Part shown: piece after piece, positions 3,147 to 44,537 of the stretch
Layout of the letters: every line of letters starts with the position of its first letter
How positions within the stretch are numbered: position 1 is the stretch's first letter
IMG/VR virus record: IMGVR_UViG_3300045988_154277
DNA length: 64,000 bases
Direction: 5' to 3' (one strand)
DNA from: a virus
Position numbers and translations under genes: made by a program
The notes under the pieces: model-generated
Seen by the model: only the letters and a program-made list of their open reading frames with translations
What the model was told of the DNA's origin: nothing
Databases searched by the model: none

Positions 3147-3172
3147 ATCGATCCTTCTTGTTTAAAACTAGA

Positions 3173-3203
3173 CATAGGAGGAGGAACAAGACCTCCTCCT
3201 ATG
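3173..3203. terminator. 12-bp stem intergenic hairpin
   Basis: CATAGGAGGAGG aacaaga CCTCCTCCTATG. Confidence 0.45.
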
Positions 3204-3228
3204 TCAAAGTTCATATAAGAGTTACAGC

Positions 3229-3969
3229 TTACTTAGCCGCGTTCTCTTCCGGAGCAGCTTGGTCAGCATTCTTGTCTTTCGACTTGTCGGCACCACCTGC
3301 ACGCTTCGCGGCAGCGATGAACGAGTTGGCAACTCGGATGACGTTTCTGTCGTCCTCGACCGCCTTCTTGATGGCATCACGCAGCTGTTGAATGTATTCA
3401 TCAGTAGCTGCATTCTGCGCTTCTTTGAGCTGATCTTCAAGTTGACTTTTTGTCTTCCCAAGTTCATTGACAGCCTGCTTCAGTTTATTGAGAGCAGCCG
3501 TGAACTTACCTTCATCGGTAATCTTACCATCGATCACAGATCCGCCTTTGATTTCGAACGGACCTTTGAACTTCAGCGAGTTCAGAGCAGAAGCAGTACG
3601 TTCTTTCTGGTTGAAGAGCCATTTGAAGAAATTCGTAACTTTCGCCCAAAGATCCTTCAGGATCTGCTTGATCTTCTGACCGAGACCCTTCTTGGCCTCT
3701 TCGTTCTCAGCTTCCATAGAAGCGGCGCTGCTGAAGTTCTCTCCATAGAGAGCTTCCAGAGAACGAGTCACGCCATATTTCTTGATGCACTTGCTGATGG
3801 CGTTGACGTTGTCATAAGTGCGAACCGTAGCGGTGAGTTCATGACACAGATCCAGGACATCGGAAGCAGCCTGATTGAACTGGATCAGAGAATCCAGGTA
3901 CTCATACGAAAGTTCACCAGAAGCTTTCGGAGCCATGCCCAGATTTTCAAAACCAAGATTGATACCCAT
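3229..3969 (-). CDS. helical protein, paralog family member B (246 aa)
   Basis: MGINLGFENLG... and KKYGVTRSLEALYGEN; paralog of the 2106-3146 product. Confidence 0.6.
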   Translation of the reverse strand: MGINLGFENLGMAPKASGELSYEYLDSLIQFNQAASDVLDLCHELTATVRTYDNVNAISKCIKKYGVTRSLEALYGENFSSAASMEAENEEAKKGLGQKIKQILKDLWAKVTNFFKWLFNQKERTASALNSLKFKGPFEIKGGSVIDGKITDEGKFTAALNKLKQAVNELGKTKSQLEDQLKEAQNAATDEYIQQLRDAIKKAVEDDRNVIRVANSFIAAAKRAGGADKSKDKNADQAAPEENAAK

Positions 3970-5534: not shown

Positions 5535-6573
5535 ATGGCTTTCAAAAGACGTAAGATCCAACTGGATCCAGAGATGAAACAGAGGATGGAAAGTAGCAGT
5601 AGGAACATTTTCGAAGTGTTCTACTCTGCGACGACTACCCCCCCCAGGTGCGTTCCCACTTTGGACAGGTGAGTGGATCCTGAACTGTGCGGGTACTTAC
5701 CCAACATTCTACCAGAAAGCAGTAGAATATCAATCCAAAGGTACGATCCGTGCTGTGAGCAATGCTGATTATGAATCAGACTTAACTATATATGGAGAGT
5801 GTGGCGCATTCGTAATCCAAGGGAATGACATCCGTTTACCTAAGATCACTTCGTATGTGAAATCATGCAATCTCAAAAGCGACATCGGTGTTACACTACC
5901 TCCTGGTCTTCCTAACATCACAGGTACATTCGGTGGTATTTCCAGAAGGACAGATGCCGGATGGATCCACCCGAGTGGAGCGTTGAGTTTGATCAGAGAA
6001 CCTTTTGGTTGGGGTCCCGCCGGTAGTGATCCAACTTACGCTGGAGAACTTCAGTTCAACGCTAACGCATCGAACAGCATCTATGGAGCATCGGGTACCG
6101 TACAGCCTCCTTCTGTTCAGTTAGCGGCTTACATCCAAGTGTATCACGGAGTATCGGACCAATCTCTCGTCAACATCGGTGAACTCACCAACCAGATCTC
6201 TCAGTTATCTGCGAAAGTAACAGAACTCACCAGACAGTTGGATACCTACAAATCGAACAACTTCGGTGCTCCTGATCATAGCAATCGTGTTGTGTTGACT
6301 CCTGAAACATCGGCAACAGAACTATCATACACTCCGAATGTGAATGGATATATCTCGGGATACTTCATGCGAAAGGACGACGGAGCAACCCAGATCGACC
6401 TGATTGTAAATGGAGTTACCTATAGCAACTGGTCGAGACCTGGTTCGTATTACGTGAATGGTCACATGTCCGTACTGATGCCTGTGAAAGCAGGACAGAC
6501 GGTCGTTGTAAGAAGAGTCAGTGGTAATTGGAACAACAGGCTCAACTGGTTGTACTTCATCCCGTGTGCTTAA
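5535..6573 (+). CDS. tail-fibre-like protein, reading frame broken by a C8 homopolymer (two ORFs as sequenced: 5535-5672 and 5755-6573)
   Basis: GAGGTG RBS plus ATG at 5535; frame 0 stops at 5670. The +1 frame from 5578 onward encodes PPGAFPLWTGEWILNCAGTYPTFYQKAVEYQSKG...YGECGAFVIQGNDIRLPKIT, paralogous to the middle of the 605-aa fibre, but has no start codon. Deleting one C (C8 to C7) fuses both parts. Confidence 0.6.
5638..5645 (+). repeat. C8 homopolymer tract inside the fibre gene
   Basis: ACTACCCCCCCCAGG seen directly. Confidence 0.9.
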
Positions 6574-6618: not shown

Positions 6619-7590
6619 TCACTTCTCTATGATCTTTAAAAGAACTTGGCATTTCTTACCAACAAGCGTAGAGTATTTCATCACACTACGTACATTGTTG
6701 TCGATCTGTTTGACAAGCGTCTTCACGGTGTCGAGTTTGGTCTTCGCCATCTCTTTCGACATCTGGGTGTTGGACTTTGTGTCGTTAGCGATTGCTTTCG
6801 CCGTCGTATGGAAGTTACGAATGGCTCCGATGTAAGTGTTCATCTCATCGAACCGTGTAGCCAAAGTATTCAAACTGGTAGCATCGAACCATTTACCGTT
6901 GACAGGGTCCATACCATCCTCAGTATTGCGGACATCTTTTCCGTTACCAGACTCCTTTTTGAGTTGGTCTTGGGTGGTGGTCAGGGCGTTATCTTCCGTT
7001 TTAGATTGTTCCTCCTGTCCCTGTGCTTGTACGGTCTCTTCGTTCGTCTTCAGTGCTTTAAGCTTATCGGCTCGATCTTGGAACTCTTTCTGATTGTCCA
7101 AGATCTCTTTCAGGAACTTCGCGATCGACTCAGTTGATTCACCGTGTGTGGTATACTCTTTCTTGAGTTTATCCACATTCTTCGGATCTTGACATTTGTT
7201 CGCCAACTTACGAAGGAGATCAGCAGAGGCCTTCGTGCTGACAGACATCACCTCTGTGAGGTATCGAATCAACTTCGGGAAGAACTCAGTTACTTTATCC
7301 CACATCGTAGTCATCGTCTTGGAGATCCCTCCTGCAACTTCAACGCTAGAAGTATAACCTTCTTGTGCAAGTTGTAAGCCGACGATATCTTGAAACACAT
7401 GATCTGTACGCAATGTATCAATGTGATGTTCTAACCACATCAGATTACGACACAACACATCCAGATCCTCCAAGGACTGGAACAGTTCTCTCGATGTGTC
7501 ATTGTGCTGATCTTCTTTCAAGGTCAAAAGGATCCGTTCATCCATAGACAAGGATGGGTCCTTATAAAGCGGTGTAAAATTAAATGACAT
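6619..7590 (-). CDS. helical protein, paralog family member C (323 aa; start at MSFNFTPLY)
   Basis: ORF track starts at 7824, but that region contains the 7619-7651 hairpin. The ATG at 7590 has a GGAGAC RBS. The product resembles the 346- and 246-aa proteins. Confidence 0.55.
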   Translation of the reverse strand: MSFNFTPLYKDPSLSMDERILLTLKEDQHNDTSRELFQSLEDLDVLCRNLMWLEHHIDTLRTDHVFQDIVGLQLAQEGYTSSVEVAGGISKTMTTMWDKVTEFFPKLIRYLTEVMSVSTKASADLLRKLANKCQDPKNVDKLKKEYTTHGESTESIAKFLKEILDNQKEFQDRADKLKALKTNEETVQAQGQEEQSKTEDNALTTTQDQLKKESGNGKDVRNTEDGMDPVNGKWFDATSLNTLATRFDEMNTYIGAIRNFHTTAKAIANDTKSNTQMSKEMAKTKLDTVKTLVKQIDNNVRSVMKYSTLVGKKCQVLLKIIEK

Positions 7591-7618
7591 GATAGGTCTC
7601 CTGATTTTAGCATAGGAT

Positions 7619-7651
7619 GGAACCATGGGTGAGATACTCACCCATGGTTCC
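7619..7651. terminator. 15-bp stem / 3-nt loop hairpin
   Basis: GGAACCATGGGTGAG ata CTCACCCATGGTTCC. Confidence 0.55.
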
Positions 7652-7658
7652 AGATGTA

Positions 7659-9917
7659 TCAACGACTGCTGATATTTGCAGTATCGGTACCACGACCCCG
7701 ATTCGTAACACGATTGAGAGAAGTAGCATTCGTACTGATGTCTGTCTTCTCGTGGTTCGCATACGGAGCTGTAACAGTAAGGAACCTGGCTGCAGGAGAA
7801 CGTCCGATCTTGGCACCCCACCATGTGGGATTGAAGATCGTGTTCTTCTTGATCAAGGTTGCAGCTGCAAGTTTCCGCATCGACTTCGGCATCAAGTACA
7901 GTCGTTCACTGATCCCCAATGCAGACAAGGTATCCAGATACTCCATCAGGTTGTTGTTCCTGGTAAAGGTATCGAAGAACCCGATGTCTTGCATACTGAG
8001 GAACACAGCAGGACTGAGATCCTTGATGCTGAAACTCACATCGATCGCAGTTGGCAGGTTGGTACTGCTCCAACCAAACTCATCTTTCCCACGACTGATC
8101 GACATATCCGTGATCATTCCACACGGTACTGCGAATTTACCTTTGCAGTATGCGTTGATGATGAACGGAGAGGTGTACATGTTGTCACCTACTGATCTGG
8201 GAAGAGCGGCAGCCAACAACATCAGAAGAGGGATGTAGATGCTCTGGAAGATGGATGTAGGATCTCCATACCGAGCTCTCAACTGGATCGTGAACGAATA
8301 CGACTTACTGAAGGAACTACCTTTCCACACTTCAGGGATATCGATGAATCCACTACCATCGGTCAGGATCGCTCCGATGTCACCGATACCAACAGCACTT
8401 GCTGTTTTAGCAAGTAGTTCCATACCAACTGTTTTAGCGAAGTCACCGATCGATTTCTTCTCCGATAAGTTCTTCGCTAGACGCGCTACGAAACTACCAC
8501 CACCAGTATCATCGAACTCATCGCGTTTCTGTTGAGCGACTTGGTTTAACCTTTGACTGATCCCAGTAGGACCTGTCTGGTTGGAGATGTTTTCGGTACA
8601 GTTCAATCCACGTTCGATCCGGAATCCAACGAAGTCGCCAGCACCGAAGAGCGTTCCTTTCAAAGCTTCAAACGATTTGGTGAAGACACCCTTGGACTCG
8701 TTATTCTTGACTTCCGTGAAGTTGCCATCTTTGTCAACCTCATACTTCGGTTGAGGATTCACATAGTACTGAGACGTCTCTTGTTGACGTTTCCACTGTT
8801 CCTCCATCAACTGACGCGTTGTCACTTTCACACGCTGTGCGTTGAACAACATCGCACGTCGGTTCATGATGGTGAAGATATCAGGACCGTTCTTCAACAA
8901 CTCAGGGATCCCACAGTCGTTCGTGGAGAACTTCCCTGACTTTGAATACTCACTGATATCGATCGGCATCACGGATCGTGCGCTGTATCCTGCTTCTCGC
9001 ATGACCTGAGCGACAGTCTTGCCATCTGCATTCAGTACGATACCGTTATCATTCGCTGGTTGGGGTTTGTTTGTGTCGTTCGGAAGATCCTTCGTTCGAT
9101 CCGAACGTTGGAACATCCAGGTTGGATACAACCCCATACCAACAGCGAGATAACTGAGCATCGTGTTCACCGTCTCGTAGTAGAGAGGCATCGCTGGTTT
9201 GAAATAGTAGTACATCGTGATCCGTTCACTATCGAGTTTCATCATCCATCGGTTGATATGGAATGGAGCTAAGACAGGGAACGTGATCGCCCAGATCGCT
9301 GTACTGAACACCATGCGGATGATCTTACCAACCAAAGTGCGGATCGATCCTTGGTTCATCGCGATCGCAGCTTGACGATTACCACTAACGGTATAGAACT
9401 GAAGTACGTTGACGAACTCAGGAACACCCATCCTCATCCAGAGGATCTCCTGGTTGTCGTCGTACATTTCTGCATAGACTCTTCCCATACCAGAGGTGAA
9501 TGCCTCCATCCCAGGTATACGAAGTAAAGGAGGAACGATATCATCGTCTCGATTGAACTGCCAGTACGGGTTGATCGCATCATTCCCACCAACACGAGTA
9601 TCCGTGTAGTTCGGTGAGGCATAGAGCGACTTACCCTGAGCCATCTCGTCGGTGACTTTGTCTTTGTTCAAGGCTGCAGAAGATGCATCGGTCTGTTCCA
9701 CGTTCTTCAGGATATTCATCCACTGTGTCACGTTCGCAGTGATTTCACTGTTATCGGCATCTTGAGCCAAGACGAACCGTTCGATCTCCATAAGAGTTTT
9801 GAATGCTTTGTTCGGATCTTCTGCGATGCGGACTCCGTAGGGTGAGCGAACCCACCCGTTGGAGTCCCCACCAACAGATGTGATCCCAGCAGCATCTCTT
9901 AAGATCTGATAGGACAT
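7659..9917 (-). CDS. large virion-type protein (752 aa), function unknown
   Basis: Long ORF immediately downstream of the giant gene; hydrophobic segment VFSTAIWAITFPVLAPF. Confidence 0.6.
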   Translation of the reverse strand: MSYQILRDAAGITSVGGDSNGWVRSPYGVRIAEDPNKAFKTLMEIERFVLAQDADNSEITANVTQWMNILKNVEQTDASSAALNKDKVTDEMAQGKSLYASPNYTDTRVGGNDAINPYWQFNRDDDIVPPLLRIPGMEAFTSGMGRVYAEMYDDNQEILWMRMGVPEFVNVLQFYTVSGNRQAAIAMNQGSIRTLVGKIIRMVFSTAIWAITFPVLAPFHINRWMMKLDSERITMYYYFKPAMPLYYETVNTMLSYLAVGMGLYPTWMFQRSDRTKDLPNDTNKPQPANDNGIVLNADGKTVAQVMREAGYSARSVMPIDISEYSKSGKFSTNDCGIPELLKNGPDIFTIMNRRAMLFNAQRVKVTTRQLMEEQWKRQQETSQYYVNPQPKYEVDKDGNFTEVKNNESKGVFTKSFEALKGTLFGAGDFVGFRIERGLNCTENISNQTGPTGISQRLNQVAQQKRDEFDDTGGGSFVARLAKNLSEKKSIGDFAKTVGMELLAKTASAVGIGDIGAILTDGSGFIDIPEVWKGSSFSKSYSFTIQLRARYGDPTSIFQSIYIPLLMLLAAALPRSVGDNMYTSPFIINAYCKGKFAVPCGMITDMSISRGKDEFGWSSTNLPTAIDVSFSIKDLSPAVFLSMQDIGFFDTFTRNNNLMEYLDTLSALGISERLYLMPKSMRKLAAATLIKKNTIFNPTWWGAKIGRSPAARFLTVTAPYANHEKTDISTNATSLNRVTNRGRGTDTANISSR

Positions 9918-34223: not shown

Positions 34224-35588
34224 ATGAATATTCTGAGTGACATGGACACATTCGACAGTGGTGACAACCCGAATTTCAACACGGGAACACTGCTCGATCT
34301 ACCCACTGGTAAATACGTACAAGGTGTGGATGATGAGTGGTATCTAACCGGTGGATTACCGATGCACATCACGGTATTCGGTGGTCGTAATGGACATTTC
34401 AAGAGTACGATCACCAACGCTTGTGCTCAACGTATCACCGCGATCTATCCGGACAGTGACCTGATCGTGGAGGATACGGAAGACAGTCTCACCAAAGACA
34501 AAGACCGCGCTTATGCGATGGCTGAAGAGCTGGCTCCGCAAGTGAATAAGAATAACGTTCAGTGGTTGAAAGGCATCGACTACGATCTCGACAGCTTCGA
34601 TAAGTGGTTCAAAGACTACTGTATCAAGAAAGAAGCCAATGCCAAAGATCTCATGGTGGAAACTCCGTTCTACGATGAGAAGACTCAAAAACCTCTTCGT
34701 GTGATGATCCCCACCACGATGATGATGGACAGCATCACTGAACTGGTAACCGCAGTGGAAGAGGACATGGTCAACGGTGAGAAGACTCAAGGGATCGGTG
34801 ACCCGAAGAACAATACTGTCGCTATGGTGGATGGCAACAAGAAAACACTGTGGATCCGAACCATGCGTCGTCGTTGTCAGAAGTACGGGATCATCTTCGT
34901 TGGTACAGGACATTACGATAAGATCCTAGAGATGGATCCTTACTCACCGACTCCCAAAGAGACCATCGTCGGGAAACAGTCGTATAAGTTGAAACGCTGC
35001 GGTAGCAATCTCAAGTTCCTAGCATCCATCTATGCGATCACCAACGCTACCCTCCTTGTCGATAGCAACAAAGAACCGCTTTACGACGATGGTACTTCTG
35101 CATCGAAGGATATCTTCCAAGTGGATGTTACGTTGGAACGTTGTAAGACAGCTTGCTCTGGAACAACAACTCCGTTCGTTGCATCGCAGACCAAAGGATT
35201 CCTGAATGCTGTTACCAACTACCACTACCTCAGACTGAACAACTACTTCGGTCTGAACGGCAACAAGCAAAAGCAGCAACCGTTCCTGATGCCAGATACT
35301 ACGATCTCTCGCAATACCGTTCGTCAGATCGCAGGATCCTCTCCTCAAGTGAGACGTGCACTGGAACTGGCTGCACAGTACTGCTTCATCAAGAACAACT
35401 GGAACACAAGAGATCTTCATGTGGATTTCAGTATGGATCCTGCCAAGGTCTTCGATATCCTGAACAGCGATAAGAAGAAGACATTGGTTCAAGACATCCT
35501 CAACACCAGAGGATACTGGACCTATGGTCAGTGTGACATCCCATACATGAGTCTGATCCGCATGTTGGAGCTTGTAAAACAAGGATAA
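34224..35588 (+). CDS. RecA-superfamily recombinase, UvsX-like (454 aa)
   Basis: TVFGGRNGHFKST resembles the non-canonical UvsX P-loop (GPSKSFKS type); a second block MIPTTMMMDSITEL. AGGAGA RBS. Confidence 0.4.
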   Translation: MNILSDMDTFDSGDNPNFNTGTLLDLPTGKYVQGVDDEWYLTGGLPMHITVFGGRNGHFKSTITNACAQRITAIYPDSDLIVEDTEDSLTKDKDRAYAMAEELAPQVNKNNVQWLKGIDYDLDSFDKWFKDYCIKKEANAKDLMVETPFYDEKTQKPLRVMIPTTMMMDSITELVTAVEEDMVNGEKTQGIGDPKNNTVAMVDGNKKTLWIRTMRRRCQKYGIIFVGTGHYDKILEMDPYSPTPKETIVGKQSYKLKRCGSNLKFLASIYAITNATLLVDSNKEPLYDDGTSASKDIFQVDVTLERCKTACSGTTTPFVASQTKGFLNAVTNYHYLRLNNYFGLNGNKQKQQPFLMPDTTISRNTVRQIAGSSPQVRRALELAAQYCFIKNNWNTRDLHVDFSMDPAKVFDILNSDKKKTLVQDILNTRGYWTYGQCDIPYMSLIRMLELVKQG

Positions 35589-35595
35589 TACATAT

Positions 35596-35633
35596 CTAAC
35601 ACTAGAGTGGCAACAACACCACTCTAGTGTTAG
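35596..35633. terminator. 15-bp stem hairpin
   Basis: CTAACACTAGAGTGG caacaaca CCACTCTAGTGTTAG. Confidence 0.5.
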
Positions 35634-35640
35634 ATGTTTA

Positions 35641-36108
35641 TTACGCGGGGATGAAGTAGAAGAGTTTCATCCGATTCGGTGTCTCGGTGGTAACGATGTG
35701 TGTCACACAATACATAAGACGTCCATCCGAAGCGGAGAACTTTTGTTTGCGGATCAGGATCTGACCCTGCATCTGCTCGATGGTATCACCCTCTTCCAGA
35801 TGATCTTTCTGAGCACACCAGTCGGTCCAGAGAGATTCTGTGATCGCAACTGCGTTGCTCGGAACAGAAGGATGCTGGTGATCACTGAAGAACAGTCCGT
35901 CTTCCCAGTAGTAATTGTTACCACTGCCAGGTTCGTTGGTCACGTGTTTGAGCGCCAGTTCCACCGTATCCACAAGACTGAGGATCTTGTTGTCCACAAC
36001 AGCACGACTTGCGGTACTGATGTCGCTCACCATCTCACCAGCGAGAACGGTCTTGATGTACGCTTCCACAGTCTGTTTCAGCTGTGCCTTGAATTGTTCT
36101 TTCGTCAT
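35641..36108 (-). CDS. hypothetical protein (155 aa)
   Basis: ORF divergent from the fibre operon. Confidence 0.5.
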   Translation of the reverse strand: MTKEQFKAQLKQTVEAYIKTVLAGEMVSDISTASRAVVDNKILSLVDTVELALKHVTNEPGSGNNYYWEDGLFFSDHQHPSVPSNAVAITESLWTDWCAQKDHLEEGDTIEQMQGQILIRKQKFSASDGRLMYCVTHIVTTETPNRMKLFYFIPA

Positions 36109-36148
36109 AGAAGAACTCCAAACGACCCCCAGCTGATATTCCTCGCAT

Positions 36149-36157
36149 GGGGGGGGG
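36149..36157. repeat. G9 homopolymer tract in the divergent promoter region of the fibre operon
   Basis: GCATGGGGGGGGGTAAGCC between the gene starts at 36108 (minus) and 36288 (plus). Confidence 0.9.
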
Positions 36158-36287
36158 TAAGCCGCCCCATACTTGGTTCACGAATGTGTTCTATACCATG
36201 CTTCTGTACCTCTGATCACAGCCTCGTCTAACGCCATGCTATGGCTCAAAACTACCTTGAAAAACCAAGCACATAAGGAGCTTAGAT

Positions 36288-37526
36288 ATGTCTACTGCGC
36301 CTATCCCACCTGTGGTGCGTTCTCCCCTCGTAAGGGATGTGACAGACGCATCGCAGAACAGATCGAAGCAGTTCATCCCCTCCGCATACGCCGTCGGCAA
36401 ACTGTTCACCGGCGTTACGTTGAAGGATGACATCGATCTGGATACTTACGTGGCACCAGGTGTGTCGCGTGTGAATACGTATAAAAACGGACCTCCGGTT
36501 ACCAGTCCTGGTTATCTGGTGATCCACACCGTGAACCCGGATGAGGATAAGAGTACCCTCAAGTATCGGTATCGTCAGATCTACTATCCAGACAGCACCA
36601 CGGAGACAACTCCCTATACTCGTGTGGGTAACAGCACGAATGGAACTACTATCACTTGGTCTGTGTGGACCACGATGGGTGGTAACTGGGTATGTGAGAT
36701 CTTGGGTGGTAACAAAACTGGTATCGTCAACTACATGTACCACTCGTTCAACAGCTGGACGCTTACCCTGCCTGATCCTAAACTGTATGTAACAGGAACC
36801 AGGATCGGATTGACCCAGTGGGTGAACAACGGTAAGGTGGTCTGGGGAACGAACGAACAGGTCACAACCCCTGATATCTCTGAAGAAGGAACTGTGGTTG
36901 GTGCCCTTCAATATATTTTTCAGATTGTACCTAAAAAACAACCGGATGGTAGTAGTGTAAACATATGGGCTCTGGATGTAGACAACAACATCGATGGTAC
37001 CGTCGAAAAGTTGGTGGAGAACTTCCAGAGCAAGGTCGATACGATCAATACCACGATCACGAACCTTACGAACCGCGTTGCTAAAGAAGAACAGACCCGT
37101 GCTTCAGAGGACACTGCGATCCGTAATGAGTTCCGTGCAGCAGATACTGCATTAGAGAACGATTTGAATGCGAAAATCGAAAAGAAGCAGCGTTTGATGA
37201 AGCACTTCATCAATGTAACTAACGCAACAGTTACGAATGGTTCTGGAAACTACGATATATCCGAGTTCGACTATACGCTGGAAGTGATCGCTAATGGAAC
37301 CATTTCAATCTATCCATCCAGCTCCGGAAATGCAGGACCGCATGGCGCACGACTTGTGTTGCATCTTCATCCAGGAATCACCACCGTTGTCAAATACATC
37401 AAGGGGGGACCTGAATATGCAGAGGAAACATTCCAAAACACAAGCACGTCCGATATCCTTGTTATCGATATGCAACTTACATACGTTAACAACACAACGA
37501 CGTGGACTGTCCTGGAAGTAGGATGA
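36288..37526 (+). CDS. tail fibre / receptor-binding-like protein (412 aa)
   Basis: AAGGAG RBS; Thr/Asn/Gly-rich beta-type sequence with a central coiled segment (NLTNRVAKEEQTRASEDTAIRNEFRAAD); located in the fibre locus. Confidence 0.5.
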   Translation: MSTAPIPPVVRSPLVRDVTDASQNRSKQFIPSAYAVGKLFTGVTLKDDIDLDTYVAPGVSRVNTYKNGPPVTSPGYLVIHTVNPDEDKSTLKYRYRQIYYPDSTTETTPYTRVGNSTNGTTITWSVWTTMGGNWVCEILGGNKTGIVNYMYHSFNSWTLTLPDPKLYVTGTRIGLTQWVNNGKVVWGTNEQVTTPDISEEGTVVGALQYIFQIVPKKQPDGSSVNIWALDVDNNIDGTVEKLVENFQSKVDTINTTITNLTNRVAKEEQTRASEDTAIRNEFRAADTALENDLNAKIEKKQRLMKHFINVTNATVTNGSGNYDISEFDYTLEVIANGTISIYPSSSGNAGPHGARLVLHLHPGITTVVKYIKGGPEYAEETFQNTSTSDILVIDMQLTYVNNTTTWTVLEVG

Positions 37527-37551
37527 TCTATCTAAATAAGGACACAACATC

Positions 37552-39369
37552 ATGCCTAATGATTTTATCACAACAAGAACCCCAGGTTCCCGTACTTCAA
37601 CGTACGGACTGGCGGATCACATAGCGGATACAAATGCTAATCCGCATCCTCAGTATCTGCTGAAGGACGATTACATCACTGGTGGTGCTGTAACTGACGG
37701 TAAATTGGAAGCACATATCAAAGATCTCAATGCACACGCTGGCGTACTCGCTTCGATCCAAATGCTGAACAACTATGTGTTGATATCGAAGTTCACTGAG
37801 CTCTTGAGTGCGAATCTGTATCATGATTATGCAAACGACAGTAGCGAAGCACATGCTGCATCTATGTCTGCTGTGAATGGCGCATATGGTGCAGCGCTGA
37901 CTGCGCTGAGCCAACATACGGTTCAGTATGCACAAAATGCCGCAGTAACAGGGCATCGTGATTCTGAGAACCAAGAGCTGTATGCACATCGAGTGCATAC
38001 ACATACATTGGAAGAACTGGGTGGAGCTACCAGTTTGCTCCCAGATCTGGATAAGAGGTATTCTCAACTTGGTCATAACCACGATGACCGATATGCTCTT
38101 ATCACACACTACCACAACTACCTTGCGCAGTCTGATCTTGAATCAGTCGGTATCTATCCGAACACGACGATCGGTATCGCTGGTACTGATACAGAGACTG
38201 GTGCTGTTACCGATCCGTTTGATTTCAATGACGAGACGCAACAGGGGAATGTTTCGATATCTCCTACTGTGATGTCTTCTGCGTTGAACAAACCAGACAT
38301 CACAACTCCGAGTGCCGCTTCGTTTTTGAATATCACCACAGAGATAACCTCTGCTGACAAAGAAGACGATAGTGATACTACCATCTACGGAGAACGGTAT
38401 GTGTCTCAGTCTTTGACCACCGATAATGGCATCTACTACCGTATCGGTCATCGTGCTGCTGGTTCATTGGCTGAAGGTCAGGATGAGTCTGCTCTCTGGA
38501 CTTGGAGTGATTGGCAACCTGTTGGTGGAGGTTCGAAGGATATCTTCGAGGTGTTTTACTCGACATCAACGGCTACACCAAGAGGCGCATTTCCACTGTG
38601 GACTGGTGAGATGATCACGAACTGTAAAACGCTATATCCGACGTTCTACCAGAAAGCGCTGGAATATCAAACCAGCGGTAAGATCCGAGTGGTTACCCCC
38701 ACTGTTTACGAACAAGAGCTGACTACGTACGGTGAGTGTGGTGCATTCGTGATCGACACAGCGACTGGTAACATTCGTCTTCCGAAGATCACAAGATTTA
38801 TCAGTTCTTTGGATGCGGTTGGTGATATCGGCGTCGCGAAGAACGATATGCTTGTTGACCACACTCACACAAATGATTACACAAATGTCAGTGGCAACGC
38901 ATCCCCGACTGCTGATGGAGTTCATGGTAGTGCCATGCCTGCAGAACGCGCAACTAGAAACACTACAGTGTCTGCAAGTAATTCTAAAACCACAGTTGGT
39001 AATGAAGTCCAACCCAAACACGTTCGTTTGGCGCTGTACATCCAGGTGTACAACTCGATTACGGCATCTGCGATCACTGATCTGGATGCTCGTGTTGGTG
39101 TGCTGGAACAAAATGCGATCATGTTCGCAAGACATGATTTCACAGCATCCCAGTGGAACGATAACAGTGATGGTACCTTCACTTATACGTTCAATACGAA
39201 CCACTTCACTTCATCTCACATTTACATGAATGAGACAGGAGGGTCGGTCCTTGTTGATGAATCCGTAGAAGTGCATATTGAGGGTCCAACTGAAACTGAC
39301 GCATCTTCGCGTAAAGTCAGATTGGTCTCCCCACAGCGGTTCTCCGGATACATCATCACATTGGGGTAA
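37552..39369 (+). CDS. tail fibre protein with His-box repeats (605 aa)
   Basis: NANPHPQY, LNAHAG, HRVHTHTLEE, LGHNHDDRYALITHYHNY motifs. Its internal module GAFPLWTGEMITNCKTLYPTFYQKALEYQTSGKIRVV...YGECGAFVID...IRLPKIT is shared with the 5535-6573 gene. Confidence 0.6.
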   Translation: MPNDFITTRTPGSRTSTYGLADHIADTNANPHPQYLLKDDYITGGAVTDGKLEAHIKDLNAHAGVLASIQMLNNYVLISKFTELLSANLYHDYANDSSEAHAASMSAVNGAYGAALTALSQHTVQYAQNAAVTGHRDSENQELYAHRVHTHTLEELGGATSLLPDLDKRYSQLGHNHDDRYALITHYHNYLAQSDLESVGIYPNTTIGIAGTDTETGAVTDPFDFNDETQQGNVSISPTVMSSALNKPDITTPSAASFLNITTEITSADKEDDSDTTIYGERYVSQSLTTDNGIYYRIGHRAAGSLAEGQDESALWTWSDWQPVGGGSKDIFEVFYSTSTATPRGAFPLWTGEMITNCKTLYPTFYQKALEYQTSGKIRVVTPTVYEQELTTYGECGAFVIDTATGNIRLPKITRFISSLDAVGDIGVAKNDMLVDHTHTNDYTNVSGNASPTADGVHGSAMPAERATRNTTVSASNSKTTVGNEVQPKHVRLALYIQVYNSITASAITDLDARVGVLEQNAIMFARHDFTASQWNDNSDGTFTYTFNTNHFTSSHIYMNETGGSVLVDESVEVHIEGPTETDASSRKVRLVSPQRFSGYIITLG

Positions 39370-39372
39370 TTA

Positions 39373-39379
39373 CCCCCCC
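39373..39379. repeat. C7 homopolymer tract between the fibre gene and the LRR gene
   Basis: GGGGTAATTACCCCCCCTCAG. Lies inside the 123-nt start-codon-free open leader of the LRR frame. Confidence 0.9.
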
Positions 39380-39437
39380 TCAGTTTAAATATACGCTTAT
39401 TGACTGGGGCGGGGTAACCGCTGCTCGCATCACAGGG

Positions 39438-41069
39438 TTGGAGTCGAATGAGTCCAACATATCAGCGTTGTACGTCCCATCCTTCATCACAGATGAGGAT
39501 GGGGTACAGTATCCTGTGAAATCTGTTGGTTTGAAAGCGTTCGCGGGTAATCCGAACCTTGTCAAAATCTATTTTGGAGAAGGTATCGAAGAGCTTCGTG
39601 AACAAGTATGTTACCACTGCTCTAACTTGGAGTCGGTATCACTTCCGTCTACACTACGTTATATGTGGAATGCGTTTCAAGAGTGTGGGAAGATAACTAC
39701 GTTGGAGTTACCAGCTAATCTGGAATACCTCGGATCAAGTTGGATATATTCGATGGTAGGACTTACTGGGGTGATCAACATCCCAGCTAAGGTAACTGAG
39801 ATCAATATAACAGCCATCTCGTCAGAGCATATAACCGGGTTTAATGTAGCAGCTGCTAATCCCAACTACAAATCCGTCGATGGGTGCTTGTTCACCAAAG
39901 ATGGAACAACGTTGTGTTTAGTACCGTCATCCGCTGATTGGGTGACTGAATATGTTACACCAGATGGTGTAACAACGATTTGGACAAGTGCATTTTCTAC
40001 CAACCGCAGTCTTGTCACATTGACACTTAGCGAAGGGGTTGTATCTGCACCAAGCGCAATCGGTAGCTGCACAAAGTTGATACAGTTGAATCTACCGTCT
40101 ACTCTAACAACCAACCCATTCCAATCCCTCGCCAATATGTACAGCTTATCTGCGATTACCGTATCGGAGAATAGTCAGACATTTGCGGCGGTGGATGGAG
40201 TGATGTTCACCAAAGATCTGAATACATTGATCAAGTATCCTCCTAAGAAAGAAGCAGCATATATCGTACCTTCTACTACCAAAATACTTGGTAGTGGTGC
40301 GTTCTCTTTAGGTAGGATGCAGTCTCTCACCTTGAATGAAGGATTACTTGCTATTTATTCAGATGCATTACGGTCTGTGATCAAAGTTCCAAGTGATAGT
40401 ACACTGAATGTGTTGCGTATTCCGAACACGGTCAACTCTATCGCCAACAACGGATTGTTTGAAGCGTTCTGGTCTGGCTTTGAAGTAGACAACACACATC
40501 CTTATTATTCCACGGATGGTTCTGTTCTTTATAACAAAAATAAGACTGCAGCTCTTGTGTATACCTGTGATACCTCCGCTCCTCACGATCGAGAAGTAAC
40601 ACTTCCATCTACCGTTGAGGAGATCGGTTTAGGTTTCTCACATAACAACAGTCCACTTGTGAAGTTAGATCTGAGTCGAACCAAAGTAACGGTTCTTCCG
40701 CAGTTCACTTGGTTCTCAACAGCGAACGACGGTAATGAACGAACTCTTTTGCTTCCAAACACGTTAACAAGGATCAATTATAACAGCATCCGAATCGTAA
40801 GTGCAAGAACTCTCACGATACCGGCTGGTGTAACTACCATTGAATCTGCTGCGATAGGGTTGGATAATGCAGAGGAGATCGTGTTCGAAGATCCAGGGCA
40901 AGCTGGATCTGATGGAGTTAAGGTGTTCAACCTGACAACCTTCAACAGCATCTTCTGGACTATATCTCCAAGGTGTGTTGTTCGTGGGTATAAAGGATCT
41001 GAAGACAACTTGTCTCCAGCTGAACAAATCGCCAAGCAGTATACATTGCTGTTTGAACCACTCGGTTAA
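39438..41069 (+). CDS. BspA-type leucine-rich-repeat surface-protein-like domain protein (543 aa), probable fibre/adhesin component
   Basis: Repeats of the form xxSVxxIGxxAFxxCxxLxxIxLPxxL throughout. No ATG: the track uses TTG at 39438, and the frame is open upstream back to 39315. Confidence 0.5.
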   Translation: MESNESNISALYVPSFITDEDGVQYPVKSVGLKAFAGNPNLVKIYFGEGIEELREQVCYHCSNLESVSLPSTLRYMWNAFQECGKITTLELPANLEYLGSSWIYSMVGLTGVINIPAKVTEINITAISSEHITGFNVAAANPNYKSVDGCLFTKDGTTLCLVPSSADWVTEYVTPDGVTTIWTSAFSTNRSLVTLTLSEGVVSAPSAIGSCTKLIQLNLPSTLTTNPFQSLANMYSLSAITVSENSQTFAAVDGVMFTKDLNTLIKYPPKKEAAYIVPSTTKILGSGAFSLGRMQSLTLNEGLLAIYSDALRSVIKVPSDSTLNVLRIPNTVNSIANNGLFEAFWSGFEVDNTHPYYSTDGSVLYNKNKTAALVYTCDTSAPHDREVTLPSTVEEIGLGFSHNNSPLVKLDLSRTKVTVLPQFTWFSTANDGNERTLLLPNTLTRINYNSIRIVSARTLTIPAGVTTIESAAIGLDNAEEIVFEDPGQAGSDGVKVFNLTTFNSIFWTISPRCVVRGYKGSEDNLSPAEQIAKQYTLLFEPLG

Positions 41070-41078
41070 CAACATGAT

Positions 41079-41111
41079 AACTTCTTGGGAGTATGTATCT
41101 CCCAAGAAGTT
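41079..41111. terminator. 13-bp stem hairpin
   Basis: AACTTCTTGGGAG tatgtat CTCCCAAGAAGTT. Confidence 0.5.
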
Positions 41112-41134
41112 CTATTAACAACAAGGATAACATT

Positions 41135-41482
41135 ATGTCTTACATCAAACATATGGGTAAGTTGGAACACGGAGGTGCTATCGGTGTCCCTGATTACCAA
41201 CAAGGGATCGTTATCCCTTGGGTAGATGGGTCCGGTTCTATGCAAGAGATAGGTGGTTCCAGTCGTAATATCCAGAAACAATACACGATACCTCAAGATG
41301 GATGGGTGATCGGACGACTTGGTGCAACTCACTACTCAGTCAACGGGATTTGGGTGAACCAAGGACAGGACAGCTACAACGGAGAAGGTTGTATCCCTGT
41401 GAAACAAGGCGACATCCTTGGTTGTGCAGCCAACTCACCATCAGATCATGTTTATTTCTACCCAGCTGTGGGGGGGGGGTAA
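41135..41482 (+). CDS. small fibre-locus paralog 1 (115 aa) ending in a G10 tract
   Basis: MSYIKHMGKLEHGG... ends PAVGGG-stop, with GGGGGGGGGG at 41470-41479 directly before the TAA. Confidence 0.55.
   Translation: MSYIKHMGKLEHGGAIGVPDYQQGIVIPWVDGSGSMQEIGGSSRNIQKQYTIPQDGWVIGRLGATHYSVNGIWVNQGQDSYNGEGCIPVKQGDILGCAANSPSDHVYFYPAVGGG
41470..41479 (+). repeat. G10 homopolymer tract at the 3' end of paralog 1
   Basis: Seen directly. Confidence 0.9.
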
Positions 41483-41512
41483 TTACCTTCTTGATGAGAG
41501 GAGGGCTGCCTA

Positions 41513-41902
41513 ATGTATACCAAATATATGGGAGCTCTCACTCCGAGTGTATGCGGTGCGCCTGATTACTCCAAGGCTGAGAACAGACCTTACACTACCA
41601 ACTCCAACGGCACTCGCGCATTCCATTACACAGAGTCACAATCGGGTTGGTTGTTCATCCAGTATGTGGCTGATGCGTTCGAAAGTAACCGTGCGAATCG
41701 ATTGATGATTGATGGAACTGCATTTGTGTTCAACGATACTAATGGAGCGAAGCATTACATCGATTATGTGTCGTATCAAGTTCCGATCGGTGCAGGAAGT
41801 ACTTGGGATTTCTCCTTCCAAGGGCAACGTGCTACAGTCACGTTCGTTCCATCGGGGGGGGGGTCGTTAGCTAACGACCTGATCTACGAGGAGGTGGCGT
41901 GA
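41513..41902 (+). CDS. small fibre-locus paralog 2 (129 aa) with a G10 tract 13 codons before its stop
   Basis: MYTKYMGALTPSV...VPSGGGSLANDLIYEEVA; GAGAGGAGGG RBS; G10 at 41854-41863. Confidence 0.55.
   Translation: MYTKYMGALTPSVCGAPDYSKAENRPYTTNSNGTRAFHYTESQSGWLFIQYVADAFESNRANRLMIDGTAFVFNDTNGAKHYIDYVSYQVPIGAGSTWDFSFQGQRATVTFVPSGGGSLANDLIYEEVA
41854..41863 (+). repeat. G10 homopolymer tract near the 3' end of paralog 2
   Basis: Seen directly. Confidence 0.9.
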
Positions 41903-42234
41903 TGGCTTACGTAAAACACATGGGGATCTTATCCCACGTTTATGCCGATATGGAGATCGACTACGCCAATGCTGTCACGCTTACCAGTAGCGAAACATAC
42001 ATCGCACCCAATGCAGGTGTATACTACGCGAAAGGTCACTCCACGAACAGTGGATCAGCGTCGATCATCGTCAGGGCTGTGAAAGGTGATGTACCGGCTA
42101 TCACCAACCAAGCTATCGTAACAGAAGGTAGCTACGACTTACACGCTAGTGTGGTGGTCGGCAAAGGTGACAGTTGTTCGATGATCGCAACCAGATGCAA
42201 CAATCTCGTGATACGGTTCTATCCATTCAAGTAA
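41902..42234 (+). CDS. small fibre-locus paralog 3 (110 aa)
   Basis: MAYVKHMGILSHV...; start overlaps the stop of paralog 2. Confidence 0.5.
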   Translation: MAYVKHMGILSHVYADMEIDYANAVTLTSSETYIAPNAGVYYAKGHSTNSGSASIIVRAVKGDVPAITNQAIVTEGSYDLHASVVVGKGDSCSMIATRCNNLVIRFYPFK

Positions 42235-42240
42235 TAGATC

Positions 42241-42277
42241 GTAGGATGTAGGTGGGATATCCCACCTACATCCTACC
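42241..42277. terminator. 17-bp stem / 3-nt loop hairpin
   Basis: GTAGGATGTAGGTGGGA tat CCCACCTACATCCTAC. Confidence 0.55.
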
Positions 42278-42282
42278 TTACG

Positions 42283-42870
42283 CTACTTATTGCGTTTGTT
42301 TGTAGTAGTGGTCGTGGTACTCGAGTGATCGTCTACCCGCTGTATCTGATACCACTCTTGTTTCTGTTCACGAGATCCGATCAGCTCCTTTAAGTTGAGA
42401 GTGAGCGTGAACAGGTATCCAATGATGATACCGATACCGCCGATAACTGCAAAGAACGCATACACCCAGATCGACACATGTTCCAAGTGTTTGATACGTT
42501 TCTCAAACCCAGCATGTACATCAGCAGAACTGTTGTTCAGTTCCAATATGTGCCTGATGTTGTTATTGATCTCGGTGATATCTTTTTGCAAACCACTGAT
42601 GTCTTCCTTCTGAGCATTTTGTCGTTGCTCAAAATCACGACGGCGTTCTTGCTCCCCACTGAGAATCGTACCGATCTTAGTCAATTCATTTTTCAACTCA
42701 TTATCCCTCTTTGTTTGATCTAATTGAGAGGTAGTGAGCATCTCAACCATCGTAGTTAAGCGTCCTTCGATCCTCTGGTTTTCCTCTTTTCTAGATTGTA
42801 GAGATGCTTTGATCTCTCCGATCTGCTGCTGTTGAATACAGACAGCCTGATGTGTCGTTTCCTCAGCCAC
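42283..42870 (-). CDS. coiled-coil protein with C-terminal transmembrane helix (195 aa)
   Basis: Gln/Glu/Lys-rich helical body, then VSIWVYAFFAVIGGIGIIIGYLFTL, then a TTTTT tail. Confidence 0.5.
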   Translation of the reverse strand: MAEETTHQAVCIQQQQIGEIKASLQSRKEENQRIEGRLTTMVEMLTTSQLDQTKRDNELKNELTKIGTILSGEQERRRDFEQRQNAQKEDISGLQKDITEINNNIRHILELNNSSADVHAGFEKRIKHLEHVSIWVYAFFAVIGGIGIIIGYLFTLTLNLKELIGSREQKQEWYQIQRVDDHSSTTTTTTNKRNK

Positions 42871-42884
42871 AACGCACCTCCTTC

Positions 42885-44537
42885 CTAGTGTATCGTAGAC
42901 CAGACTTTGCCGATCGCACCGATGTGATTGTGCTCCACAGCCATCTGACGGGTTGTGGTCGTACCGTAGATGTCGAAACTGACACCCATGTATTTCACAA
43001 TGTTGATCATATCGGTAACCAACGCTTTATCGATCTCCTGATCCTCGGTCAGGTACGAAGTGATATCAGCCAATACCGTGTCGATATCATCCACCATCTT
43101 GACAAGGCTATTCGTCGCTGCCAGATATTTCTCCATATCCAGAAGAGAGAGTCTGACATCTTTAAACTCCTTCATCGTCTTGTAAACGGACATGAACTTC
43201 ACATCCATCGGAGTTTTTTGTTCTGTGAAGACTTTATCCACAGAGCCTTTCAGAGAGTTCAAACTGGTCTCTCTCTGTTTGACAAGGTTCACCATGGGAA
43301 CCAGAGTGCTCTTATAATCTTCACTCCGCATCAACTTCCTTCTGAAATCGATCAGAGCAGCCAGAACACCCTGTCCATACGCCTGGATATCCAGCACTGT
43401 ATAGACTTGTTCCAGACTCATACAAGCGTTCTGGTAGGTACCTTTCATACCGCTTGGGATGGGGATATCTAGGTTCGTTACCTGAGTGATCGGAATGCTC
43501 TCGGCTTTCAGACACATCGTCGTATGCGATTCGTAGTAATACCGCATCTCAGAACGCTTCAGGTCTTTGTAGAATTTGAAGATATTGGTCTTGAATGTAT
43601 TGCCGATCTTGAGGAACACATCGGTCACACCGATGAAGATCTTCAGAAGACCGGTTCCGATCCCTTCGGTAGATGTGGTATCCAGAGTACGGAGGTAATT
43701 GTGATAGACTTCCAGCTTACGAAGGTCCTGATAAAGAGCATCACTGTTCCAAGGAATGAACGGATACTTGGATGCACAGACACGGAGGATCTCTTCTGAT
43801 TTCTCGGACTTATCATCCTTGTCATCTTCTTCATCTTCAGGATCCTCTTCCTCAGAGTCATCTTTATCTTTGTCTTTCTTGGACTTAGACTTCTTGTCTG
43901 ACTTATCATCTTCGTCGTCAGACTCTTCATCATCGTCCTCTTTGTCCTCATCGGAATCTGTATCATCATCTTCGTCAGAATCATCCTTATCATCAGAATC
44001 ATCATCATCGTCTTCTGACTCATCCTCCGGGTCAGGCTCTTCGTCTTCTTCATCCTCAGAGTCCTCATCCTTCTTGGATTTGGCGTTGCGGTAGATATAT
44101 CGTTCTTCAGACTTCTCTTCTTCGTCTTCCGGCTCATCGTCAGAAGTGTCTTCACCACCAACAAGATCCCATACTTTATCGACGAACGCTTTGATTTCAC
44201 GACCATCCTTCTTGATCCAGTCGTATTCAACATCGATCTTGATATCAGTATCGTACTTGTCTTTCAGTTCCTTCTCGATCTTCTTGAGAACATCAGACCA
44301 GTCGTCTTTTGTAAGGCTTTCCAGAGTGGAGAAATTGTGTTCTTCCTTTACAAAATCAGGACCATCGGAATAGTCGTTCAATAGTTTACAGATCATCCGA
44401 GAGATGACGTAACGGTTGAGCTCTTTGTCATCCTCTTCCTTCTCATCGGAACTCTCTTTCTCATTCCGAAGGTGCGTTGGTCGGATCGGTCGAAGACCTT
44501 CCGTCCCTAACGCAGACAAGCTAAACTTGGAAATCAT
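42885..44537 (-). CDS. protein with an approximately 130-aa Asp/Glu-rich low-complexity region (550 aa)
   Basis: DSEDEEDEEPDPEDESEDDDDDSDDKDDSDEDDDTDSDEDKEDDDEESDDEDDK... Confidence 0.55.
   Translation of the reverse strand: MISKFSLSALGTEGLRPIRPTHLRNEKESSDEKEEDDKELNRYVISRMICKLLNDYSDGPDFVKEEHNFSTLESLTKDDWSDVLKKIEKELKDKYDTDIKIDVEYDWIKKDGREIKAFVDKVWDLVGGEDTSDDEPEDEEEKSEERYIYRNAKSKKDEDSEDEEDEEPDPEDESEDDDDDSDDKDDSDEDDDTDSDEDKEDDDEESDDEDDKSDKKSKSKKDKDKDDSEEEDPEDEEDDKDDKSEKSEEILRVCASKYPFIPWNSDALYQDLRKLEVYHNYLRTLDTTSTEGIGTGLLKIFIGVTDVFLKIGNTFKTNIFKFYKDLKRSEMRYYYESHTTMCLKAESIPITQVTNLDIPIPSGMKGTYQNACMSLEQVYTVLDIQAYGQGVLAALIDFRRKLMRSEDYKSTLVPMVNLVKQRETSLNSLKGSVDKVFTEQKTPMDVKFMSVYKTMKEFKDVRLSLLDMEKYLAATNSLVKMVDDIDTVLADITSYLTEDQEIDKALVTDMINIVKYMGVSFDIYGTTTTRQMAVEHNHIGAIGKVWSTIH

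Follow-up and report, generated by a model that had tools for sequence, protein, structure and literature searches.

The 64,000-nucleotide (nt) stretch of viral DNA that we analyzed (IMG/VR record IMGVR_UViG_3300045988_154277, hereafter the window) carries three small genes in tandem on its plus strand, two of which have an uninterrupted run of ten G residues (G10) at or near their 3' ends. Gene 1 (41135-41482) encodes 115 amino acids (aa) that begin with MSYIKHMGKL and end in ...FYPAVGGG-TAA, and its G10 (41470-41479, plus strand) provides the last codons. Gene 2 (41513-41902), as read from the sequence, encodes 129 aa in which FVPSGGG is followed by a 12-aa tail, SLANDLIYEEVA; its G10 (41854-41863, plus strand) is followed by 12 sense codons and then by a TGA stop that overlaps the ATG of gene 3 (TGATG). 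Gene 3 (41902-42234) encodes 110 aa ending in FYPFK*, is devoid of a run and is the final member of the array in every relative compared; like gene 1, it was defined from its open reading frame (ORF) and the sequence. On re-reading, the G10 coordinates, the gene lengths of 110-129 aa and the N-termini given in a preliminary description of this DNA were exact, and the paralogy that it proposed for the tandem genes is real though distant, as the three proteins are mutually about 27% identical and have in common an N-terminal M-x-Y-x-K-H-M-G-x-L and a C-terminal V-x-F-x-P motif. Each copy thus carries a conserved N-terminal peptide of ten residues. The TAA stop that follows the G10 of gene 1 sits within a palindrome, GGTAATTACC, and another palindrome, GTCGTTAGCTAACGAC, lies directly 3' of the G10 of gene 2. 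A hairpin can also be drawn on the plus strand at 41486-41505 (CCUUCUU...GAGGAGG), in which the Shine-Dalgarno sequence of gene 2 pairs with a C/U-rich stretch right after the gene 1 stop. The three genes close a block of fibre genes that begins at position 36288, and are followed by a long perfect hairpin (42241-42276), read from the sequence, and a convergent gene (42283-42870).

Judged by its genes, the window comes from an uncultured, phiKZ-like jumbo phage of human-gut metagenomes. The protein encoded at 48150-50387 matches the phiKZ-type major capsid family PF25620 (E 8e-15; 54.4 bits, where the cutoff is 27), and related contigs, which stem largely from human-gut metagenome assemblies, measure 197-282 kb and so extend into the size range of jumbo phages (>200 kb). 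The GC content is 47%. Among 50,697 records of isolate phages, megablast returned no match for the region and tblastn none for the capsid protein.

No Pfam family matched the three small proteins, Pfam scans of ten long homologues returned no relevant family, and among PHROG families only two unannotated ones were hit, by gene 3 alone (E 0.03-0.07). A search of 1.84 billion representatives with a profile built from the family retrieved 138 proteins, and in many of these the domain forms the extreme C-terminus of proteins of 300-2600 aa. In hhalign the profile also aligns (probability 71%, E 4e-5) with the short fibre of the phage itself, over its C-terminal 140 residues, and the alignment includes the motifs G-A-P-D-[YH] and P-V-K-x-G. 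AlphaFold models of gene 1 (predicted local distance difference test score, pLDDT, 83) and gene 2 (pLDDT 77.8) are eight-stranded beta-sandwiches, a fold that the preliminary description had named as one to look for by structure prediction. Foldseek comparison with viral models returned host-specificity, minor-tail and collagen/C1q fibre proteins (E ~1e-4), and the best matches among solved structures, all of them weak, were CBM51, C1q/TNF heads and the phage gp12 short tail fibre. At the level of models, these analyses show that each of the three genes encodes a free-standing copy of a beta-sandwich domain of about 100 aa, and homology and fold together suggest that the proteins are fibre-tip domains, probably glycan-binding, whose short N-terminal peptide serves in docking. 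The idea of a receptor-binding tip, raised in the preliminary description, is therefore supported by the C-terminal position of the domain in long proteins, the alignment with the short fibre and the weak fold matches. Its alternative, a set of fibre chaperones, found no support: neither Pfam nor PHROG gave a chaperone match, the fold is not chaperone-like, and the domain itself is the covalent C-terminus of many fibres. In one related locus (L010, 3782-3972), the gene following gene 1 opens with MYTKHMGVL and continues as a His-x-His fibre-like protein instead of a small sandwich domain, which suggests that the N-terminal peptide is a transferable docking motif shared between proteins.

Long runs of a single base are rare in this genome. 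Homopolymers of at least 7 nt are confined to five in the 64 kb, namely C8 at 5638-5645, G9 at 36149-36157, C7 at 39373-39379 and the two G10s; the longest A or T run is 6, where Markov simulations predict 1.4-5.5 A/T runs of at least 7. For G/C runs of 10 or more, two are observed and 0.005 are expected from Markov simulations of the window. GGG makes up 16% of Gly codons, and a GGG-GGG pair is used for 4 of the 92 Gly-Gly dipeptides encoded by 42 genes, all 4 within the two G10s. The rarity of long G/C runs noted in the preliminary description is thus borne out, and the G10 runs are far from what chance would produce. All five G/C runs of at least 7 lie in or beside fibre-type genes, which occupy about 11% of the window (p ~2e-5 by our own arithmetic).

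We computed the outcome of slippage for the reading frames from the window sequence with altered run lengths. At the junction between genes 1 and 2, G10 or G7 gives no tail and a stop that begins 33 nt 5' of the gene 2 ATG, whereas G9 adds ten residues, NYLLDERRAA, and brings the stop into overlap with the gene 2 ATG as TAATG; G11 would add 28 residues and read 50 nt into gene 2. The preliminary description had put these extensions at about 14 residues for G9 and about 32 for G11, both of which are corrected by our recomputation. At the junction between genes 2 and 3, G10 yields the acidic 12-aa tail SLANDLIYEEVA and the TGATG overlap with gene 3, whereas G8, G9 or G11 leaves a tail of 1-3 aa and a stop that begins 30-34 nt upstream. 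A change of plus or minus one was said to truncate or replace this tail, and indeed gene 2 then ends in ...GGGR* (G9) or ...GGGVVS* (G11). Each G10 lies zero to one codon past the last strand of the fold (F-x-P); in the gene 1 model this strand spans residues 106-112 and GGG comes next, and in the gene 2 model the tail is disordered, with pLDDT below 50 over residues 120-129. Because the runs sit just outside the fold, slippage cannot knock out the domain. In most of 70 homologues the end of the domain comes 1-5 residues past F-x-P, and since the runs follow the last conserved strand, homologues end so soon after it and the tail is modelled as disordered, we consider that the tail is probably not the part that contacts the receptor. 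Of the proposal that a slippage-prone tail makes a variable tip, the rewriting of tails thus stands, as the comparison with relatives shows below, whereas the tail itself is probably not the variable contact surface.

About 30 related loci (designated by L numbers) were compared, all from metagenome assemblies and many so closely related that they are not independent lineages; forms at the protein level were taken from the members listed in 90%-identity clusters. The gene 1 run is G10 in 12 loci, G9 in four and G7 in one, and the corresponding proteins measure 115, 125 and 114 aa, with ends that read AVGGG, AVGGGNYLLDERRAA or AVGG, the extended form following the pattern AVGGGN[YH][LF]LDERR[AV]A. 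The gene 2 run is G10 in seven loci, G11 in five, G8 in two and G9 in one; here the proteins end in SGGGSLANDLIYEEVA (G10), SGGGVVS (G11), SGGVVS (G8) or SGGGR (G9), and the four lengths share a protein body that is identical or differs by one substitution (P0292, P0297, P0298 and P0302). Pairs of gene 1 and gene 2 states were seen as (G9,G11), (G10,G11), (G10,G8), (G10,G9) and (G10,G10), which shows that the two runs combine independently. Gene 3 remains an intact ORF of 110 aa in these genomes, except in L105 (93 aa) and L107, where the contig ends inside the gene. The other runs vary as well: the intergenic run at 36149, its flanks identical, is G7 in three loci, G9 in two, G10 in three and G11 in two, and the run after the fibre stop at 39373 is C7 in 18 loci, C8 in two and C9 in one. 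Some contigs break exactly at a run, as L011 ends in the gene 2 run and L017 starts in the intergenic run. Elsewhere, unpaired coding indels that are not multiples of three are few, according to a rough census that is made noisy by compensating gaps in divergent stretches. Run lengths therefore differ between otherwise near-identical wild genomes, several lengths and tails occur among close relatives, and the invariance across related phages that would have spoken against the preliminary description was not found, an outcome in its favour.

Elsewhere in the module, a run of the same type decides whether a fibre gene is read in frame. In the window, the short fibre gene (5535-6573, plus strand) is out of frame, with a 40-aa N-terminal part and the rest in the next frame, and is split by the C8 run (5638-5645, plus strand). 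The upstream part reads ...NIFEVFYSATTTPP and the downstream part, in the next frame, PGAFPLWTGEW...; the latter comprises a collar-like region, a coiled coil and a tip domain, and both parts are homologous to one continuous stretch of a 605-aa long fibre encoded in the fibre block. Two alleles of the short fibre, A and B, were distinguished among the relatives, with identical flanks within each. Allele A is out of frame with C8 (window) and with C9 (L098), and in frame with C10 (L097), where it encodes 346 aa (P0147, 97% identical); allele B is out of frame with C7 (L015) and with C9 (L099 and L100). C10 is thus the sole in-frame state among the loci compared, and among the members listed in the short-fibre protein cluster six have 346 aa versus nine of 272 or 253 aa. 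Gene annotation of the window would give a truncated short fibre of 272 aa starting at an internal GTG. A fourth paralog, present in other relatives, has its run just past the N-terminal peptide, and is intact with G7 (L006), intact with one extra codon with G8 (L012) or split with G8 (L014). The true on/off runs of the module, such as the C8 at 5638, fall outside the coordinates covered by the preliminary description. Directly 3' of the in-frame short fibre, the 278-kb relative L097 carries a TnpB-like gene (2676-3929; OrfB_IS605, Cas12f1-like_TNB); Pfam returned nothing for its counterpart in the window (ORF 6619-7824, minus strand).

Several features of the 3' runs point to selection, although kinship among the lineages limits the weight of the counts. 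The gene 1 allele of L004, which is 62% identical in nucleotides and 51% in protein, retains an uninterrupted G10, followed by TAATTACC; since neutral synonymous drift should have broken the run, its persistence argues for selection. The +1 state of gene 1 is absent from all 17 loci with a gene 1 run and from the cluster members listed, in contrast to gene 2, where G8 and G11 are common. In addition, the gene 1 run is present wherever a paralog follows and absent in L019, where gene 1 is the only gene, and the gene 2 run is found just where gene 3 follows, while gene 3 is always without a run.

Because the runs are polymorphic in relatives and all five G/C runs of at least 7 nt lie in the fibre module, we believe that the tail-fibre, and hence host-recognition, module of this phage contains at least five G/C slipped-strand contingency tracts, the two G10s among them, a reading to which we assign a probability of roughly 0.7-0.85. 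Polymerase slippage at a G10 would alter the C-terminal tail and the position of the stop jointly while sparing the domain. The shift of the stop could change translational coupling to the next paralog and with it the ratio of the tips; alternatively, or in addition, the added tail may affect how the tip is mounted on the virion. In C1q/TNF-type jelly-roll heads, the C-terminus lies near the N-terminal attachment end. Progeny would then differ stochastically in the amount or mounting of each successive tip protein, and the outcome would be bet-hedging over host-surface recognition. The effect on the virion, be it through tip docking or translational coupling, is what we infer from the arrangement of frames and folds. 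A sharper version of this idea, which we put forward tentatively and think somewhat unlikely, is that the 3' G runs act as stochastic switches of operon polarity that set translation of the next tip paralog through the position of the stop, possibly aided by pairing of the G run with the C/U-rich stretch opposite the Shine-Dalgarno sequence (anti-Shine-Dalgarno). If this were true, two independent runs would turn a clonal burst into several types of virion in which three lectin-like tips are mixed in differing proportions. Such a dosage switch, combinatorial and encoded by reading frame, has not been described for any phage.

A number of observations weigh against the contingency reading or its mechanistic parts. 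All three frames of gene 2 are common and tailless homologues exist (ending in FVPSRG* or FVPST*), so the tail may be dispensable and its state nearly neutral. The genes downstream of both runs have strong Shine-Dalgarno sequences of their own, and an extra A after the TAA in L016, L017 and L018 deprives the G9 frame of gene 1 of its TAATG overlap, which weakens the idea of coupling at the junction between genes 1 and 2. High-frequency, reversible switching within one population would have to be deduced from differences between samples, with the contigs that break exactly at a run as an indirect hint. Predicted hairpins that mask the Shine-Dalgarno sequence of either downstream gene, by pairing it with bases beside the run, are not distinguished from shuffles (z -0.5 to -2.2): the CCUUCUU...GAGGAGG hairpin is predicted in the window and L010 and is possible in L004, with z-scores that are not significant, and with too few distinct sequences for covariation we rejected such hairpins as proof of coupling. 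We accordingly think coupling, as the specific mechanism, somewhat unlikely.

Under a neutral explanation, the runs are hypermutable yet without function, frame changes at the 3' edge of a gene are costless, altered tails and stops have no adaptive role, and the runs are perhaps scars of the recombination that shuffles cassettes. The conserved fold does end before the runs, the disordered tails lack conservation from lineage to lineage, gene 2 is frequently found in all frames alongside tailless homologues, and the array is fluid, as shown by the joining of genes 1 and 2 into a hybrid in L001 and L020 and by the fusion of genes 2 and 3 within the run in L016; GGTAATTACC is, moreover, common to two cassette ends. 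Drift, however, should interrupt GGG-GGG-GGG, yet the G10 persists at 51% protein identity in a genome that otherwise avoids homopolymers, the +1 state of gene 1 is missing, and the presence of a run tracks the presence of a following paralog, and for these reasons we consider neutrality unlikely. An artefact of sequencing or assembly, with poly-G lengths miscalled from short reads, has in its favour that homopolymers are error-prone, all relatives are metagenome assemblies and some contigs end at runs. The same states nevertheless recur in samples and assemblers independent of one another (two ENA assemblies and three from Logan have G11, and two from ENA have C9), in-frame states restore a conserved protein sequence, and the C7 after the fibre gene is nearly invariant whereas longer runs vary, as the biology of slippage predicts, which makes miscalling scarcely credible as the source of the variation.

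Two further explanations place the effect of the runs at the level of RNA. By analogy with known leader repeats, the G run might pair with the CCUUCUU anti-Shine-Dalgarno stretch, or with a small RNA of phage or host, and its length, not the reading frame, would then grade translation of the next cistron like a rheostat. The C/U-rich stretch between the gene 1 run and the Shine-Dalgarno sequence of gene 2 could indeed pair with either of them, and the minimum-energy fold of L004 does pair it with the G run; but shuffled sequences fold no worse, and the gene 2 run is followed by a self-contained palindrome with no evident counterpart of the C/U partner, so that we regard the rheostat as improbable. 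Programmed recoding, through ribosomal frameshifting or transcriptional slippage, would let a single genotype yield short and extended proteins in a fixed mixture, as for the G/GT tail-assembly chaperones. GGG GGG GGG followed by a stop would permit tRNA re-pairing in either direction, and RNA polymerases are able to slip at long homopolymers (reviewed in PMC5009743). Recoding sites, by contrast, keep their length and frames, whereas the DNA here takes every frame among relatives; the short-fibre alleles would require opposite shifts, and no conserved stimulator was seen in the sequences. We therefore hold recoding to be very unlikely as the main explanation, while slippage at the level of RNA may add to the variation in the DNA. 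We also rejected a role for a G-quadruplex, on the reasoning that a single G10 cannot provide four G-tracts for a stable intramolecular quadruplex, and a role of the G run as an internal Shine-Dalgarno sequence, for which no start codon lies at a suitable distance.

In its apparent mode of action, the locus is like the contingency systems of Fletchervirus and T-even phages, without a sequence relationship to either. As summarized in later accounts, Campylobacter phages of the genus Fletchervirus carry hypermutable polyG runs that make receptor-binding proteins phase-variable (Sorensen 2021, per PMC8713573, PMC10579305 and PMC11959909). Insofar as these summaries describe that system, the likeness extends to G runs of about 9-10 in the host-recognition genes of a lytic phage, several alternative receptor-binding proteins and slippage that leads to mixed progeny, and the C run of the short fibre would be an on/off switch of the same type. 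The phage studied here is of an unrelated lineage, with a phiKZ-like capsid, 47% GC and a human-gut origin, and the comparison was made through the summaries. A change of length in the two 3'-terminal G10s does not silence the protein; the present system also includes intergenic runs, and is known from sequence alone. In T2, T4 and other phages, single-base repeats mutate reversibly through polymerase slippage and give bet-hedging progeny (Gomez, Barrick, Waters, bioRxiv 2025, PMC12633550), but these loci are mostly A/T runs of 6-9 in all classes of genes, in AT-rich genomes with more than 100 repeats (PMC12633550), whereas the genome analyzed here is nearly free of homopolymers and has its few long G/C runs nowhere but in the fibre module.

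Other comparisons concern parts of the arrangement. The G-repeat in the leader of tlpB-hp0102 of Helicobacter pylori is under control of the small RNA RepG, and its length grades expression (PMC8295292); there, as here, a length-variable G run lies in a polycistronic mRNA, outside the functional part of a protein and with surface-related genes downstream, although the tlpB repeat lies in a 5' untranslated region and has a defined small RNA, while the runs described here lie inside the 3' end of an ORF, and any effect of theirs on expression is a predicted one. Invertible fibre segments in Mu and P1 and the diversity-generating retroelements of Bordetella phages switch tropism (PMC10579305), and the outcome in common with the locus would be that the progeny of one clonal phage differ in the distal parts of their fibres. 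The cassette array, whose ends are conserved, looks like a collection of alternative tips. The module showed neither an invertase nor inverted-repeat crossover sites nor a reverse transcriptase, and the mechanism here would instead combine homopolymer slippage with homologous recombination between paralogs. Like the chaperones and adhesins of the Tfa and T4 gp38 type, genes 1-3 are small genes directly 3' of fibre genes; unlike them, they have no family match, adopt a jelly-roll-like sandwich in the models and encode a domain that is also the covalent C-terminus of many fibres. What sets the system apart from those known is its occurrence in a gut jumbo lineage, the confinement of its runs to the fibre module, the intergenic runs and the 3'-terminal position.

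So far, homopolymer-based phase variation of phage host recognition has been shown mainly in one group of Campylobacter phages. If our reading is true, a system of several runs in an unrelated giant phage of the gut would make this strategy more general and one that can be mined from sequence, as the in-frame and out-of-frame states are directly visible in public metagenomes. It would also mean that the fibre genes of such phages are prone to be miscalled as broken or truncated, like the short fibre described above, and that one stock of a gut jumbo phage may be mixed in its host range. The position of the runs at the 3' terminus further raises the question of whether slippage tunes the dosage or mounting of alternative tips rather than switching genes off.

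The paralog array itself is, to judge from the rearrangements among relatives, recombinationally fluid, with one to three intact paralogs per relative at this position. In L001 (13584-14167) and L020 (6698-7281), genes 1 and 2 have been fused at their conserved 5' ends to give one hybrid gene, and in both loci a change from A3 to A4 (window position 42085) frameshifts gene 3. In L016 (7077-7451), gene 2 runs on into the end of gene 3, and the two meet within the G run. A highly structured insertion of 153 nt in L017 (5751-5903; fold z -3.14) interrupts the gene 2 homologue and brings in-frame stops into it; the insertion matches nothing in Rfam, is without a second copy among the sequences compared, and may be a miniature mobile element.

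Upstream of the array, all on the plus strand, the fibre block begins with a 412-aa coiled-coil protein (36288-37526), followed by the 605-aa long fibre (37552-39369, defined from its ORF), whose translation has H-x-H motifs and shares the stretch DIFEVFYSTSTATPRGAFPLWTGEM with the short fibre, and by a BspA-type leucine-rich-repeat protein (39516-41069; Pfam LRR_5, E 9.5e-32) directly 5' of gene 1, for which the GTG start at 39516 was adopted from gene calls in relatives. The intergenic G9 (36149-36157, plus strand) lies 41 nt upstream of a divergent gene (35641-36108, minus strand) and 131 nt upstream of position 36288, and may act as a length switch in a promoter or leader. At the end of the 605-aa fibre gene, the sequence GGGGTAATTACCCCCCC (39363-39379, plus strand) places the stop in a palindrome, GGGGTAATTACCCC, followed, within 39363-39416, by the C7 run (39373-39379), which forms the 5' arm of a stable hairpin (RNA fold z = -3.15). 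The 10-mer GGTAATTACC occurs at just two sites in the window, the end of the 605-aa fibre and that of gene 1, where 0.04 are expected, and this recurrence suggests a common cassette boundary.

An Rfam search over 35.5-42.9 kb gave sub-threshold noise alone, and a tRNA scan found none. Matches to sigma-70-type promoters are depleted over 35500-42900 (4 found versus 13.2 expected from shuffles), and genes 2 and 3 are preceded by strong GGAGG-type Shine-Dalgarno sequences; both features fit transcription by an RNA polymerase of the phage's own in a host that uses Shine-Dalgarno sequences. Beyond the convergent gene that follows the array, the minus strand carries an ORF of 550 aa (42885-44537) with a very long, low-complexity centre rich in Asp, Glu and Lys.

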